Shown here: positions 1-6,000 of the stretch, one piece after another | How the letters are laid out: each line of letters opens with the position of its first letter | How positions within the stretch are numbered: the first letter of the stretch is position 1 | Assembly (NCBI RefSeq): GCF_003334385.1 | Contig: NZ_QOWN01000043.1 | DNA from: Escherichia coli | GTDB lineage: Bacteria; Pseudomonadota; Gammaproteobacteria; Enterobacterales; Enterobacteriaceae | Length of the DNA: 37,210 nucleotides | Direction: 5' to 3' (one strand) | Position numbers: made by a program

Positions 1-3000
1 CCGCGTGTAGAACACCAGGCGGTGCTGGCTGTCGTAGTGGTGGGTCCGCTCGTCGTGCATCCGTATCACCCCTTCCGCGATGCGGTTATCCGGCCATGCC
101 GTGAGCGTGCTGTCCGGGTGCAGTTCCGGGTCCGGCAGCCGGTTTCCTGCCGGGTCCGTCGCATACGGGATATCGATATCCAGGTTCGCCGCCGTGGTGT
201 GGACGCCCGTCAGCCTTCCCGTGTCGCTGTAACGGTACTCCCGGCTCTCCTGCGGGCCGCTGATGCGCACCAGTTGCCCGTTGTCGTTCCACGTATACTC
301 ACGGTCAAGCTGCGGGAGGTTCAGGTGCCTGCTCCGGAGCTGCCCTGTGAGGGTGTACGCCGTGGCCTGTTCGTACCCCGCTGTACTGCCCGCCCCGCCG
401 AAGCTGCGGGCCGTCTCACGGTGCAGCCTGTCCCGCGTGTACTCGACCAGCGGCGTTCCGCCCAGCTTCATCCCCGCAAGATAACCGCTGCCATATGTCA
501 GCCACTCCACCGGCGGCAGACCGTCCGGCTCCTGACGGGTCGCCAGCCCCTGTTCGCTGTACGCGTGCCCCGTCTCATGCTCCCACAGCATCTCCCCCGT
601 CTCCGGGTTCTCCACCGTCTGCCGTTCGCCCGTCAGGCGGCCTTTATCGTCATAGCCGTAGTGGACCGCCACACGGTGGCCTTCACTGGTATGGCTGATG
701 GTGGTTAACCACCCGTGCTCATCATACTGCCACTGCTCCGCCGGGTCGCCGTTCACCGTACGGTGCGTGATGCGGTCCGACGCATCGTAATGCCAGAGGG
801 TGATAAGCCCCTCATCTTCACTCTGCGTGAGTTTTCCGGTCAGGTCATACTGGTAACGTTGCGTCCGGCCGTCAAAGCCGCGCTGCTCCGTCAGCCTGTC
901 CACCGGGTCATACCGGAACGTGGACTGGCTGCCGTTCTCGTTAGTCAGCACGGTGATGCGCCCGGCGGCGTCATACCCCATGCTGCGCGTCAGTCCACCT
1001 TCCGTCACACTCACCGGACGCCCACGTTTATCATATTCGGTGGCGCTGCGTTTACCGTCCGGTGATATCGTTGCTGTCAGGTCGCCTGCAGCGCTGTACT
1101 CATAACGGGTTTCACGCCCCTGCGCATCCTTCCGACTGATCAGTTGGCCACGCGGGTTATAACTGCTGTAAGTGCTGATGCCTTCTTCCCGGTGAACGGC
1201 GATTTGTTGACCGTACTGGTCGTACTCATACCGCGTCGTGTACCCCGAGCAGTCCGTAAAGGCCAGCAGTTGACCGTAACGGTTTCGCGTTATTCTCCGC
1301 CTCACCCCGGTTCCGTCTTCCACCGCACAGGGCAGGCCACTGCGGGAAAAATCATAAAACCAGCGCGTAATGTTACCGTTGCGCGAGGTCTCTTCTGCCA
1401 GTCGGCCCTGACGGTCATATTTCCGGCTGCTGCGTAAACCATCCGGATATGTCACTGAAGTCAGTTGCAACTGGCTGTTATAGCCATACCGCACCGTCCT
1501 GCCGTCCGGCAGTATCACTGAAGTCAGCTTTCCAGACGCCATATGCAGCCGGTACTCCGTCCGCCGCCCCGCCGCATCCGTCTGCGCCTTCAGCCTCCCC
1601 GCCTCATCATACTCGCTGCGGGTGATGCTCCCGTCCGCATGCTCCTTTTTCACCACCCGCTTCAGGCCACCTTCGCCCTCCGTGTACAGCACCTCCCGCC
1701 GGTTCAGACTGTCCGTGATGATTACCCGGCGCTCTCCGTACTCAAAGCGGTAGTCCAGCCCCTCCGGGTTGACCTGCTCCGTCACCCGACCGGTATCATC
1801 ATACCGGTAGCGGCTCTCCGGCCTCCCCGCATAATGGTGCGCCACCATCCGCCCGGCGTGCTCCGCATCATAAGTAAACCCGCGAACCTGCGTCCCGCTG
1901 CGGTCATACACCGCCCGCAGTTCTCCGCTGGCCGTGTACGTGTAGCGCGCCAGCGGCGCAGTCGGCTGTTCATCCGGGTATGCCGGGTCGTGTGTCAGCC
2001 ACACCGCCTCCAGCCGGATACCGTTATCGGCACCGTACTCTGTACCGGCGGGCAGCGTGTCGGGGAAAACCTGAGAAGAGGAAGCAGAACGGGGACCGGC
2101 TGGAGAAGATAAGGAAGACTCGCGCTGTTTACGGAAGGCTTCTGCCCGCTGCGCCTGTGTGCTCAGCACCAGGTGAAAACAGCGGCCCGCACCGTCCGTC
2201 ACCCCCGTCACCGCGCCCGCCACGTCACCCTCCGCCGCCCGGTGGAAAGTCAGCGTCCGCCCGAAGCCGTCCACCACGCCCGTCAGCACCCGGTATGCGG
2301 GCGGCTCCGGCGGCGGCACCTCGTCCGCCTCCGGCACACGCTCCGGCCAGCCGAGTATCAGCCACTGCCCGGTTGTGCTGACAGCCATCATATAGGTGTG
2401 TGGACTCAGACGGACCGCTTCCGGCAACGCCCGCCAGAGCCGCGCAAGCGGATGGCCTTTGTGTTGTTTCAGCACTCCGCCCCTTGCCAGCCAGAACGAC
2501 TCGCTGCGGCTGTAGCTTATCTCGCCGGGAAACAGCGACTCAAAGTGAATGCTCCTGCCGCCGCTGTCGTTGAGTATCAGTTCCCGCTCATGAACCTGTA
2601 AGCGGATATCGAAGGGCGCTTTCCAGCCGGGACCAAACACGCCCACTGGCGCGGGCGTCCTGGTCCGGTAGCTGCTGTAGGCGCGGAAAAGAATAAACGG
2701 CAGCGGGCCGGGCAGTGCCAGGTCGGTTTCAACAGGCAGAACCTTCGCACCGAGTAGCGGGTTCACCGGGCTGCCATAGTTCGGACTGTCCTTTTTTGTG
2801 GGACACACCGAGCAGGCCACACCGGTTGGCGCACCTATCAGCACCCCTGCTGAACCCTGCACAATATCCAGTCCCTTGCGGGTCATGTCACCCTGCCGCG
2901 CCGCCGGTTTTCCGCCGCCCATGAATCAATTCCTTCTGCTTTTAATATGGTTCATCTGGTCACTGCACCAGTTCCGTTTTAATTTTTTGCACCTGACTCA

Positions 3001-6000
3001 AAATTGCCGCATATCCGGCATTCCGGGGGGTAAATCTTTCGGCACAGGCGCATCCGGTACAGGTTGTGTGGCACCACAGTTCCAGTTAATCACTGGCGCA
3101 TCACCGTTCACATCCGACTCCCCTTCCAGATGAATGTGCGTACCGTTGAGAAATATGCTTCCGTCCTTCGTCAGCACCAGCCTTGCCTTACCACAGCAGA
3201 GTTCAAGATGCTCACCGGCAGAATAAACTGCTGTTTGTCCGGTGTTTTCCTTCATCGTCTTGCCCACCGAGAAGGTGACGTTATTCCCCACATTGACGCT
3301 GTAGCCCATTCCCACCATCAGTGATTTATGCAGCCCTACCTGTGAGGACTGCAACAACGCCACCGAGGTATTCATAATGCCGCCTACCGTCGTCTGGTAA
3401 GCCACACCCACCGTCAGCGCACGAATGATCCCCACCTTTTCAACCTGGTTTGATCCCACTTTGATAATCTGGTTACTACCCACCGTTTCCACCTGGTTGA
3501 CACCAACCGTCTGTATCTGATTAACGCCAATGTTCTGGATCTGGTTATTGGTAACGGTGATCGCCTGGTTGTTACCTATTTTTTCGGCATGGTTGTTTAT
3601 CACATCAGTGGTGCGGTTATTCAGCACCTCGGTGTTCATGTTCTTCTGCGCGTGGATGTAGACCTGTTCTTTCCCTGTCGCATCGTCAAACTTCAGTTCA
3701 TTAAACCCGCTGCCCTTATAGGTTTTCGAACGAATGGTCATCTGCGTCTTTGTTCCCGGCAGGCTGCCGGGTGTGCGGTTTTCCTGGTGGTAGGTGCGCC
3801 CCATAATGATCGGCTGGTCCGGATCGCCGTTGAGGAAGTCCACAATCACCTCCTGACCCACACGCGGTATCGCCAGGTTACCGAATCCGGTGCCTGCCCA
3901 CGCCTGTGCCACACGGATCCAGCATGAACTGTCCTGGTTTGACGGGTTATAACGGTCCCAGTTAAATTTCACCCGCACGCGGCCATGTTCATCACAGAAG
4001 ATTTCCTCGCCTGCCGGTCCCGTCACGACGGCGCTCTGCGGGCCGTCCACCAGCGGTTTCAGCAACGGCTGTGGCCGCCATGTCCGGTCTGCCGGTATTA
4101 CCGCAAAGTGGTTATTCAGCGTGGTTCCTGAACCACTGCGTCCCGGCACCGCCTGCGGCTGCTCGCCGTGCAGTTCACTTGCCACCACCTGCCATTCCCG
4201 GTTCAGGTTCGCCTGCGGATGCCCCGTCAGCACAATTCGCCGTCCCGGCCATATCTCCGGAGAACGGCTTGTTCCGCGCGCCACTTCTGCGTTGTTGCGC
4301 CAGCCATCCATCTGCCAGCGGGCAAAGTTCTGCCCGTGAGCACCCTTGAAACGTCCGGGGTAGTCATACACTTCATACTGTGTGCGCTGGTAATCCTGGT
4401 ACTGGCCTTCCTGATCAAAACGCCCTGCCCAGCCGGGTCGTTTAAAGGTGTAGTCTTTGGTCACCACGGAAGAAGGGCGGATTTGTGCGCTGTAGCGAAA
4501 CTGGCTGATGCAGAGGGTGCTTACCTCGGTACGGGTGTTCGGATTCCAGGGGATCTCAAAGGACTCCGGCAGATAACGCACGGTATCGCACAGGACCAGG
4601 CTCTGGTCGGTACTTTTTTGCGCGTGCTCCTCATAAAAGAAGATGCCTTCCTCCGCCGCCATCCGGCACAGGAAATCGTAATCAGTCTCACCGTACTGGA
4701 CACAAAACTCACGGGAAGGATGTGGCTCGCTGAACAGCGGGCTCCACTCGGTCACCCCGTTTTCCTGCAATATCGTGCCGAGGATGCTTTCGATGTCCTC
4801 ATTCTGGAAGATACGGAAGTTCTGGCGCAGCCCTGTGCGCCACAGCGGCGGGCATACCTTCATGCTGTACAGCTTCTGGTTTTTGTCGTTCTCCCCCAGT
4901 TCAAACCAGGTCACCACACCTTTCACCCGGCGCTGTACGTCATCGCCCTGCCATATCGTCAGGTAGGCCATTTTGTCGAGGATCTGCTGGAATTCAAGGG
5001 AGAGAAACTGCTGGCTGACCAGAGAGAGATCGAGGGAAAAAAGCGAAGAGAGTGACTGGTTCAGATGAAAGGAAACCACCGCAAAAGCATCCGGTGGCAG
5101 GCCGTCCACTTCCAGCGTGAAACGTAATCCGGTTGACATAGCAACCTCCGGGGTTAAGGAAAAACAGACAGTTCGCTGTTAAAGCGGCTGTGACAGTACA
5201 GTGTTACGCTTGCGTTCAGGCACGCTACCGCCGAAGTTTCCGGCAGCCGCCATCTCCCGTGAACGTAACCCCTTACTGACAACCTTTCTTTCTACGGCGT
5301 AATACAAAAACAGCATCCGGCCTGATAGCCGGATGCTGTTGGCTTAACTTATGCTTCCAGCGGTGCGCGCCAGTCGTCGGCACCGGAGGTGCCAGATTTG
5401 ACGTGTTCCCATTCAATTTTGCGGTAGGCCAGTGAAACTTCGAGCAACTGGGTGAACTCGCGTTTCGCCGGGTCCTGGCAATGCGGCATATGCAGTTTCA
5501 TATCGACAATCGTCGAATCAGTCAGGCGGGTAGTGAAATAATGCTCCTGTTTGCCTTCCACAGAGGTACGCCACCAGTGAAGTTCAGTGGTTGGCAGCAT
5601 TTCGCCGGAGGCCAGTGCGTTGTACATCAGCGGAACCGCTTTGTTCAGCGCCACGGTAAAAATGAAAGGCTTGTGAGCACGCTGACCCGCAGGCTGACCG
5701 GACTGAGGATCGGTCGGGACAGTAACGTTATGCAGGAATTCCTGCACCAGCATCTCGTCTTCGTGCCCCTGCACATAGATGTTGCCGACAGAATCAGCGG
5801 TAAATGCACCTGCAGTAATATTTCCCTGGGTCTGACCAGTGATGGAGATATAACACGGTGTTGGCATTTGTAAACTCCTTGTTAACGTGGTTAATTACTA
5901 CTTACAATGACCTGCCGTGAATCCCAGACAGGCAGATGCAGCTCACTTCACGGAACCGCATCATTTTCAGTATTTTTTACATACAAACCGAGCTAGAATT

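Follow-up and report, generated by a model that had tools for sequence, protein, structure and literature searches.

A vgrG-rhs effector module of the aspV-linked T6SS-2 of Escherichia coli, truncated by a contig end and with probable Tse5-like loading

The first 5,139 nt of an E. coli contig carry a vgrG gene followed by an rhs gene that runs off the end of the sequence. This arrangement raises the questions of which secretion system the pair belongs to, whether that system is intact, how the Rhs protein is loaded on the spike, and what toxin it carries. The window analyzed here is the entire draft-assembly contig QOWN01000043.1 (37,210 bp). We conclude that its positions 1–5139 very probably correspond to the hcp-proximal effector module of the aspV-linked T6SS-2, consisting of vgrG and of an "rhsG"-type Rhs polymorphic-toxin gene that is truncated by the contig end and would be loaded in a Tse5-like manner. 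The features on which this conclusion is based are listed in table 1.

Table 1. Position, strand, and basis of assignment of the features described in the text
Feature	Coordinates	Strand	Basis
rhs 5' part ("rhsG" type), 974 codons, open to contig end	1..2922	-	Stop-free translation
6-nt in-frame deletion (HYHY to HY) in GTAGTG tandem repeat, rhs	34..44	-	Alignment to N18-04097
69-nt in-frame deletion junction in rhs	72..86	-	Alignment to N18-04097
YD/RHS repeats of cocoon shell, residues ~329–911	190..1938	-	13 Pfam RHS_repeat matches + TIGR01643
DUF6531 (N-terminal plug of cocoon), residues 50–127	2542..2775	-	Pfam PF20148, E 1.9e-16
N-terminal fragment, residues 1–51, Tse5-NT counterpart, presumed VgrG-binding piece	2770..2922	-	Tse5 alignment
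Single PAAR-type repeat, residues 3–30 (GGKPAARQGDMTRKGLDIVQGSAGVLIG)	2833..2916	-	phmmer vs SalCis10
vgrG-rhs spacer, 75 nt, AGGA ribosome-binding site	2923..2997	-	Sequence read directly
vgrG (tssI), spike protein, 713 aa, intact	2998..5139	-	ORF + TIGR03361
hcp (Hcp2B-type tube protein)	5349..5867	-	TIGR03344, E 1.7e-61
tssK (baseplate), 1-nt deletion at about 14240	13996..15326	+	Alignment to relative's tssK

The initial annotation had recognized a VgrG and Rhs pair, and the family matches leave this identification standing. The product of the 713-codon vgrG ORF matches TIGR03361 over residues 7–517 (E 3e-189). It is 100% identical to RefSeq WP_000103354.1 and to proteins of many complete genomes, and the Pfam families Phage_GPD, Phage_base_V, and Gp5_trimer_C are on record for this vgrG. 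Like other VgrG/TssI proteins, it has a gp27-gp5-like core and is encoded alongside a T6SS cluster. The rhs gene starts at an ATG (2922–2920) preceded by an AGGA ribosome-binding site, with a TGA two codons upstream. Its product matches the NCBIfam model RHS_core (NF041261) at positions 3–945 of 1261 with E = 0. The E-values obtained for the two proteins rule out chance, and it is the truncation of the gene alone that keeps the NF041261 score of the rhs fragment, 1860, under the cut-off of 2000. The ORF is open to base 1, where the last residues read ...HYDSQHRLVFYTR; the gene is indeed interrupted inside its conserved core, as had been proposed. The encoded part combines a YD/RHS shell with an N-terminal DUF6531 plug, as found in T6SS Rhs toxins. 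Judged from full-length relatives of 1414 or 1506 aa, roughly the last 415–510 codons are absent from the contig; they would complete the shell and add the DPxGL protease plug as well as the toxin tip. The spacer between the two genes measures 75 nt and not the 76 bp first given. It contains no ORF and is too short for any gene; therefore, no adaptor or chaperone gene (Eag, DUF4123) separates vgrG from rhs, in agreement with the initial annotation. No DUF1795 gene is annotated in the T6SS island of the contig.

The same contig encodes hcp, tssB, C, E, F, G, J, K, L, H, A, M, tagH, and vasI, that is, a full T6SS cluster. This cluster adjoins aspV, and the island spans aspV to yafV. The gene hcp is the first of an hcp-vgrG-rhs transcription unit, divergent from tssB...tssM; two hcp genes and an FHA gene are present. 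We found at least 80% of the 5.1-kb vgrG-rhs query in 1,980 of 5,426 complete E. coli genomes, in which the genes are annotated as "VgrG" and "RHS element core protein." The pair is an ordinary one, of an already known kind. PAAR-Rhs effectors reportedly described by Ma and colleagues in 2017 are grouped here with the same E. coli T6SS-2 vgrG-rhsG module. The operon layout of APEC T6SS2 matches the hcp-vgrG-rhs unit (PMC5874247), and rhsG follows vgrG in the T6SS-2 class, whose ST410-A/H53 locus has the same aspV-yafV island, gene order, and annotation (Cummins et al. 2023, PMC10711316). A vgrG-rhs module of this type is Z0267/Z0268 of EHEC EDL933 (PMC7216683). Compared with the E. coli T6SS-2 vgrG-rhsG module, there is no difference in kind: the present copy stops where the contig does and shows private deletions of 69 and 6 nt in rhs and a private frameshift in tssK.

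Both ends of the contig are repeats, the Rhs core at the left and tRNA-Asp/rrn at the right. The sequence at the left end occurs at a median of two places per genome among complete E. coli genomes. The right end lies inside a tRNA-Asp that precedes rrn in relatives. The short-read contig stops ~260 nt into the multi-copy stretch of the Rhs core, and the rhs gene is incomplete only because of this break.

The three indels are absent from the initial annotation, which was made from the sequence alone. The 69-nt deletion in rhs costs the shell 23 aa (EDAHYVYRHDEYGRLAEKTDRIP), the equivalent of roughly one YD hairpin, and is flanked by imperfect 15-nt direct repeats, CTTCCG[G/C]GATGCGGT. In complete E. 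coli genomes, where 8,553 places matched, none of the top matches listed covered its junction in a single piece, and in metagenome contigs it was found 0 times versus 88 for the undeleted form. The 6-nt deletion variant also occurs in a second Rhs copy of some genomes. In tssK, the only T6SS gene of the contig with a defect, loss of 1 nt shifts the frame after codon 81 and leads to a stop near codon 110; this deletion is present in 0 of 2,192 complete genomes. The other T6SS genes are intact and nearly identical to those of relatives. If real, the rhs deletions would cost the shell one hairpin, and the tssK frameshift would disable the adjacent apparatus, which bears on the firing of the VgrG-Rhs spike.

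It is quite possible that all three indels are sequencing or assembly artefacts, for example if the contig was extended into the collapsed Rhs repeat along a chimeric read of low coverage. In that case, the T6SS-2 of the strain would be intact and its Rhs full-length, as in its relatives. The rhs deletions lie 34–86 nt from the contig end, in sequence that is multi-copy per genome, and the contig ends about one read length into the repeat common to tandem Rhs copies. The lack of the 69-nt junction in any other genome among the matches listed, or in any metagenome, points in the same direction. However, an imperfect repeat of 14/15 nt is too short for the usual k-mer graphs to collapse, the reading frame is preserved across both rhs deletions, and the tssK deletion is located mid-contig, outside a homopolymer.

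A tentative alternative is that the indels are real and the T6SS-2 of this strain is decaying and non-functional, the VgrG-Rhs pair being an unfired remnant whatever follows the contig end. The position of the tssK deletion outside a homopolymer and its absence from the 2,192 genomes agree with decay, as does the failure to find the 69-nt deletion in complete genomes (among the matches listed) or in metagenomes. In addition, both rhs deletions are in-frame between short direct repeats, as expected from replication slippage. Close relatives carry independent lesions in the T6SS-2 island: an internal stop in vgrG in SCU-104 and DAX4, a tssF frameshift in ETEC1749, an IS1 in hcp2 in N18-04097, and an IS421 in rhs in KH_005. 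T6SS loss across E. coli lineages has also been published (PMC10711316). Conversely, vgrG and all T6SS genes other than tssK are intact in the contig, three indels in one draft contig are equally explicable as sequencing or assembly errors, and a repeat within 86 nt of a contig end is the least reliable zone of an assembly.

For the T6SS-2 effector module as we interpret it, loading would depend on the N-terminus of Rhs, which had been said to begin directly with a PAAR-like domain. What stands of this claim is a single repeat. Residues 3–30 match the last of three repeats in the PAAR-family tip protein SalCis10 (9rce_c; phmmer, E 0.013) and include a literal P-A-A-R at residues 6–9; the N-terminus therefore contains at least one PAAR repeat of the form GxPAARxGD...GSxxVxIG. 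We rejected a full PAAR domain (~90–100 residues, three repeats): the N-terminus does not match Pfam PAAR_motif (PF05488) even at E ≤ 10, and only ~50 residues precede the cleavage site. PF05488 was found in 0 of 120 family members among the matches listed. A three-fold concatemer of the repeat gave a predicted model of low confidence. The proposed lack of an N-terminal transmembrane (prePAAR) segment was borne out, since Kyte-Doolittle hydropathy over 19 residues peaks at 1.31 along the entire Rhs fragment, which indicates that it has no transmembrane segment. The prePAAR effectors of Ahmad and colleagues (2020) are said to combine the motif AARxxDxxxH and a full PAAR with one or two transmembrane regions and to be accompanied by an Eag/DUF1795 chaperone gene. 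An assignment to prePAAR effectors was discarded: AARQGDMTRK has K for the required H, and neither a transmembrane segment nor an Eag/DUF1795 gene is present. Class II prePAAR Rhs effectors, namely Pseudomonas protegens RhsA (7Q97), Photorhabdus Tre23/Rhs1 (7PQ5), and Enterobacter cloacae RhsA, have in common with the E. coli Rhs the cocoon, a DUF6531-type plug, and a PVxxxxGAK cleavage motif, and are likewise spike-borne T6SS polymorphic toxins with DPxGL C-terminal autoproteolysis. Their 25–45 kDa N-terminus, by contrast, comprises a prePAAR motif and a full PAAR together with transmembrane helices, and they depend on an Eag (DUF1795) chaperone, whereas the E. coli Rhs lacks both the helices and an Eag gene and reads AARQGDMTRK instead of AARxxDxxxH.

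With a full-length relative as query, the closest solved structure is that of Pseudomonas aeruginosa Tse5 (PA2684), which is carried on VgrG1c (cryo-EM 8CP6, E 3.8e-114; PMC10684867). In both proteins, an N-terminal fragment of ~50 residues free of transmembrane segments leads to a PVNPxLGxK cleavage site and then to the DUF6531 plug, and the rhs gene directly follows its own vgrG, without prePAAR. In Tse5, cleavage was mapped to K47|P48 in PVNPMLGSK, the start of the shell chain; residues 48–124 form the N-terminal plug, and the 47-aa Tse5-NT is described as a PAAR-like piece (PMC10684867). The alignment of residues 52–149 of the E. coli Rhs begins with the first residue of the Tse5 shell chain, exactly at the mapped cleavage site. 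Autocleavage is predicted at S51|P52 (P52 codon at 2767–2769), in the motif PVNPLLGAK ahead of the DUF6531 plug. The residue before the cut is S51 instead of K47, and the E. coli Rhs retains a P-A-A-R that Tse5-NT does not literally have (PMC9637101). Judged from sequence comparison, a short N-terminus, a PVNP site, a plug, and an upstream vgrG indicate a Tse5-type Rhs with an N-terminus of the Tse5-NT type. Its layout without chaperone and without transmembrane segment is not unusual: it is published for Tse5 and standard for E. coli T6SS-2 rhsG. In the literature consulted, we found no experiment on the N-terminus of this E. coli T6SS-2 Rhs.

Homology to Tse5 and to further T6SS Rhs effectors of solved structure suggests that the Rhs forms a cocoon of YD repeats, which the DUF6531 plug closes, and that it cuts itself before P52 and after DPxGL, the toxin tip staying inside. 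The VgrG trimer would carry it through the ~50-residue N-terminal fragment, with one PAAR repeat and not three, and loading would involve no Eag chaperone and no transmembrane segment. Sheath contraction would then drive the spike and its cargo into an adjacent cell. Alternatively, VgrG might be capped by another protein with a full PAAR, the gene of which lies elsewhere in the genome, with the cocoon loaded via the VgrG C-terminal region or another contact, as the Rhs has one of three PAAR repeats only, unmatched by the Pfam PAAR model, and as Tse5 residues 1–29 are disordered in the cryo-EM structure, so that their contact with VgrG is not visible (PMC10684867); but this seems unlikely, because the real ORFs of the 37-kb contig contain no other PAAR-type motif besides Rhs residues 3–30, Tse5-NT is reported to be required for secretion (PMC10684867), and the GKPAARQGD...VLIG stretch is identical between two tandem Rhs copies that are 12% different overall.

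Besides loading through the N-terminal fragment, the module raises the question of its cargo. The toxin domain and immunity gene had been placed past the window start; near-identical complete genomes have them there, whereas this record holds no upstream sequence. Read from genomes 99.9% identical over 25 kb, the continuation takes two forms. In the first, an Rhs of 1414 aa carries a tip with a YkuD/L,D-transpeptidase fold and is paired with a lipoprotein-like immunity ORF; in the second, the Rhs has 1506 aa, its tip is CdiA-CT tRNase-like, and the immunity ORF is cytosolic. Some relatives have both in tandem, with an ISAs1 after each. As two or more kinds of tip occur here among the closest relatives, these do not predict the strain's own tip. 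In the relatives' Rhs, the DPIGL junction is at residues 1235–1239, and Rhs_assc_core (TIGR03696) matches with E 7.8e-22. Tip and immunity gene vary by strain, the closest genomes having the YkuD-fold tip, the CdiA-CT tRNase-like tip, or both in tandem with ISAs1-family elements between.

The YkuD analyses were done on the tip of relative N18-04097, which lies outside the window. It matches Pfam YkuD with E 2.7e-4, and its homologues are named L,D-transpeptidase, two of them carrying PF03734. Among 17 sequences, H96 is invariant and C118 nearly so. For its AlphaFold model (pLDDT 81), each of the best eight PDB matches by Foldseek is a peptidoglycan enzyme with a YkuD domain (L,D-transpeptidases, L,D-carboxypeptidases, and the amidase DpaA); the first five have a probability of 0.99–1.0. 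This tip therefore has both the YkuD fold and the conserved catalytic His and Cys, which suggests a peptidoglycan-targeting activity. Like Salmonella Tlde1a (7UMA, PMC9638812), the relatives' tip, and only that tip, shows a YkuD fold in which a His...Gly-Cys motif is conserved and is expected to target periplasmic peptidoglycan, and its immunity ORF carries a lipoprotein-type signal. However, Tlde1a is a free-standing effector and not an Rhs tip, its match to the tip model is weak (rank 10, E 0.28), and the His-Cys spacing is 21 residues in the tip versus 14–17 in the published motif. The other tip matches CdiA-CT chains with E about 2e-7 and may have a tRNase-like activity. Both kinds differ from the tip of Tse5, which is a pore-former with a membrane immunity protein.

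Positions 1–5139 hold a VgrG and Rhs gene pair, as the initial annotation had proposed (see table). The vgrG product is identical at every residue to RefSeq WP_000103354.1. The Rhs product aligns with positions 3–945 of the 1,261 in the NCBIfam "RHS element core protein" model (E = 0); that it falls below the curated cut-off of this model is solely because the gene is cut. Pfam identifies a DUF6531 domain at residues 50–127 together with 13 RHS repeats. An earlier start is impossible because a TGA lies two codons upstream of the ATG. The two genes are adjacent, although separated by 75 nt and not by the 76 bp first reported, and the spacer leaves no place for a chaperone gene, whose absence had been correctly noted. 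We can rule out an orphan rhs fragment, as this gene has its own start, a ribosome-binding site, and a full N-terminus directly after vgrG.

An exact match to the 974-residue Rhs fragment exists in one record, contig QOWN01000043.1 of the draft assembly GCA_003334385.1, whose 37,210 bp equal the window in length; the window is the entire contig. The remainder of the contig carries a complete T6SS cluster (hcp, tssB, tssC, tssE, tssF, tssG, tagH, tssJ, tssK, tssL, tssH, vasI, tssA, tssM, vasL, and a second hcp), then aspV, dnaQ, and rnhA through to dkgB; the contig closes with a second tRNA-Asp. This layout matches the published E. coli T6SS-2, in which "rhsG" follows vgrG (PMC10711316), including the FHA gene, the two hcp genes, and an hcp-vgrG-rhs arm divergent from tssB. 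The counterpart of the pair in EHEC is Z0267/Z0268 (PMC7216683). In APEC, unlike here, the slot after vgrG2 is occupied by a DUF2169 adaptor gene and a different effector gene (PMC5874247). At least 80% of the 5.1-kb vgrG-rhs query is held by 1,980 of the 5,426 complete E. coli genomes, about a third. The pair is an ordinary and already described one, the standard cargo module carried by T6SS-2 in E. coli, and its significance beyond correct annotation is small. A strong terminator-like hairpin falls within the presumed hcp-vgrG-rhs unit; in a 2026 study, the region between hcp and vgrG is reported to influence T6SS expression in EHEC (PMC13141884).

Features of the contig and of the corresponding loci in related genomes (L numbers designate the loci of the relatives named)
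Feature	Sequence	Coordinates	Strand	Remarks
rhs, 5' part	contig	1-2922	-	ATG at 2922, stop-free to base 1, 974 codons
6-nt rhs deletion	contig	34-44		in frame, HYHY to HY
69-nt rhs deletion, junction	contig	72-86		in frame
vgrG-rhs spacer	contig	2923-2997	-	75 nt after vgrG TGA; AGGA ribosome-binding site; no ORF
vgrG	contig	2998-5139	-	intact 713-codon ORF; TIGR03361, E 3e-189
Terminator-like hairpin	contig	5309-5340	-	strong; 14-bp stem, T tract; just after hcp, before vgrG
74-aa ORF	contig	7097-7321		between tssB and tssC; RefSeq label hypothetical
tssK	contig	13996-15326		1-nt deletion at about 14240
tssH (clpV)	contig	16101-18866		
Second hcp	contig	25953-26435		
Low-GC block	contig	26464-28804		GC 0.34-0.39; 304/309-aa ORF, ykfM (159 aa), yafT lipoprotein on other strand
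tRNA-Asp(GTC), first	contig	29132-29208		
tRNA-Asp(GTC), second	contig	37135-37210		cut by right contig end
Tandem Rhs elements	JP538 (L006)	2416-14114		
vgrG with internal stop	SCU-104 (L005)	14322-16463		
vgrG with internal stop	DAX4 (L007)	15705-17846		
tssF with frameshift	ETEC1749 (L003)	23346-25195		
IS1 insertion in second hcp	N18-04097 (L002)	21092-22350		

The Rhs reading frame ends with ...HYDSQHRLVFYTR at base 1, inside the conserved core as the initial annotation stated. The toxin domain does not, however, lie just outside in sequence that could be read upstream, as the contig stops there. A search of complete genomes located the first 260 nt at 8,553 sites across 3,645 of them, with a median of two per genome; at the other end is the second tRNA-Asp, which in complete genomes precedes an rrn operon. 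Both contig ends therefore lie in repeats, and it is the halt of the assembly at one of them that leaves rhs cut. The toxin is "missing" through an assembly boundary, since draft assemblies break in Rhs repeats.

The N-terminus of the Rhs protein had been described as a PAAR-like domain. This holds in the sense used for Tse5, an Rhs effector of Pseudomonas aeruginosa, with a single repeat, but not in the Pfam sense: PAAR_motif gave no match at any threshold shown, NCBIfam returned the Rhs core model and no PAAR domain, and PF05488 was absent among the 120 family members listed. SalCis10, a true PAAR-family tip protein, has three repeats, and residues 3–30 of Rhs (GGKPAARQGDMTRKGLDIVQGSAGVLIG) match the last of these (E 0.013). 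The closest solved structure overall is Tse5 (E 3.8e-114). Residues 52–149 align with the Tse5 shell chain 8CP6_B (E 2e-14) from the first residue of that chain, which corresponds to the mapped autocleavage site K47|P48, "PVNPMLGSK" (PMC10684867). In the published description, the N-terminal fragment of Tse5 comprises 47 residues, is "PAAR-like," is required for secretion, and contains no membrane-binding module; the first 29 residues are disordered and the remaining 18 thread into the DUF6531 plug (PMC10684867, PMC9637101). The E. coli Rhs N-terminus has the same build, and whereas Tse5 lacks a literal PAAR motif, the E. coli protein retains PAAR. A layout free of both transmembrane segment and chaperone thus has a well-studied precedent in Tse5.

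The absence of a transmembrane segment and of prePAAR was confirmed: the maximum 19-residue hydropathy of the Rhs product is 1.31, and it reads AARQGDMTRK where the prePAAR motif is reportedly AARxxDxxxH. Lacking the transmembrane segment, the motif histidine, and a chaperone gene, it is not an effector of the prePAAR/Eag type.

The T6SS-2 island has no free-standing PAAR protein, no other PAAR-type motif was found in the real ORFs of the 37,210-bp contig, and a PAAR cone needs three repeats, of which Rhs provides only one. A form of spike capping not yet described is conceivable, in which either three N-terminal peptides of Rhs come together as a single cone on the VgrG trimer or a one-third cap sits there asymmetrically, but we regard this as improbable. 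As a trial of the PAAR cone, a three-fold concatemer of Rhs residues 4–30 was modeled with AlphaFold; confidence was too low for interpretation (pLDDT 53, pTM 0.24). Residues 1–29 of Tse5 are disordered, so its structure does not show how a Tse5-type protein sits on VgrG. The capping of a VgrG trimer by a one-repeat PAAR-like peptide is a question shared by all Tse5-type proteins, not one peculiar to this locus.

Three rhs layouts were seen in the closest complete genomes, which share 99.9% identity with the contig across 25 kb. N18-04097 and SCU-104 encode a 1414-aa Rhs with the DPIGL core/tip junction at residues 1235–1239; a 130-aa ORF that overlaps this gene comes next, and after it an ISAs1 transposase gene and yafV. 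DAX4 encodes a 1506-aa Rhs with another tip, then a 125-aa ORF and ISAs1. JP538 and ETEC1749 harbor tandem Rhs genes with both tips behind one vgrG, in the order vgrG, 1506-aa Rhs, small ORF, ISEc1, dsORF-h1, a second complete Rhs bearing the tip type of the 1414-aa protein, small ORF, ISAs1, and yafV. A separate tip, small ORF, and ISAs1-family transposase accompany each tandem Rhs; ETEC1749 additionally has an IS66 insertion and a second immunity ORF broken into two parts. Compared as proteins only, the tandem copies are 88% identical overall and fully identical from about residue 886 to about residue 1148, and the contig break falls in this identical stretch. Such a stretch would be a recombination substrate for the passage from the tandem to either single layout, and the relatives with a single Rhs look as if recombination had deleted one copy or the other. 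The same VgrG protein is encoded by several 99.9%-identical genomes with different tips. Because islands this similar bear different or tandem tips, the tip of the source strain is not inferable from the core.

The first tip, that of the 1414-aa Rhs, matches Pfam YkuD (E 2.7e-4). Its homologs bear the name L,D-transpeptidase, two of them with PF03734, and among 17 sequences His96 is invariant and Cys118 nearly so. A PDB sequence search with this tip returned noise only. Its AlphaFold model has a pLDDT of 81, and the best eight PDB matches in a fold search were L,D-transpeptidases, L,D-carboxypeptidases, and the amidase DpaA, with Tlde1a at rank 10. The N-terminus of the partner ORF is hydrophobic and includes a lipobox-like VIGC, in keeping with a periplasmic target. 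DNA of this tip and its immunity ORF was found in about 1,000 of the 5,426 genomes. The second tip has no Pfam match and resembles the CdiA-CT tRNA nuclease chains 5J5V, 5J43, and 8ZYC in a PDB sequence search (E about 2e-7); its partner ORF has no signal sequence.

By homology, we infer a mechanism of VgrG-Rhs delivery in which hcp, vgrG, and rhs would be transcribed away from tssB. The Rhs cocoon, plugged by DUF6531, would cleave itself before P52 and after DPxGL while retaining the tip, and its N-terminal fragment would carry it on the VgrG trimer to be fired into a neighboring cell. The YkuD-type tip would then act in the periplasm and the tRNase-type tip would enter the cytoplasm, with the small ORF after Rhs protecting sibling cells.

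Near its left end, the contig is 75 nt shorter than every close genome (5,139 vs. 5,214 nt). A 69-nt deletion, flanked by imperfect 15-nt direct repeats, removes EDAHYVYRHDEYGRLAEKTDRIP, about one YD hairpin; the other is a 6-nt deletion, and both fall in the 86 nt nearest the contig end. In addition, tssK has lost one nucleotide outside any homopolymer (CCAGG[A]CGCAC), which shifts the frame after codon 81 and splits the gene into ORFs of 110 and 333 aa; it is the sole defective T6SS gene in the window. These private indels are either real or draft-assembly errors. If they are real, the T6SS baseplate is broken at TssK and the weapon disabled in the source strain, with an altered Rhs shell. 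Such a decaying locus is plausible because close relatives have independent lesions in the same island: internal stops in vgrG, a frameshift in tssF, and an IS1 in the second hcp (see table), as well as an IS421 inserted in rhs of another close relative. The 6-nt variant also occurs in a second Rhs copy of some strains. The 69-nt-deletion allele had no single-piece match among the best matches listed in complete E. coli genomes, its junction gave 0 matches in metagenome contigs vs. 88 for the undeleted control, and the tssK deletion is absent from 2,192 complete E. coli genomes.

Three further observations were made in the window. The low-GC block between the second hcp and aspV may encode an Hcp-linked effector/immunity pair; no family was found for its 309-aa ORF in Pfam and NCBIfam, nor for ykfM in NCBIfam. 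In the 74-aa ORF between tssB and tssC, residues 31–70 are similar to an N-terminal portion of TssC (TIGR03355 positions 43–82, E 5e-4), and the ORF looks like a duplicated tssC fragment. Finally, the tssH of N18-04097 is longer by 18 nt, in frame; since the length here equals that in ETEC1749, this is a common length polymorphism and not a defect.
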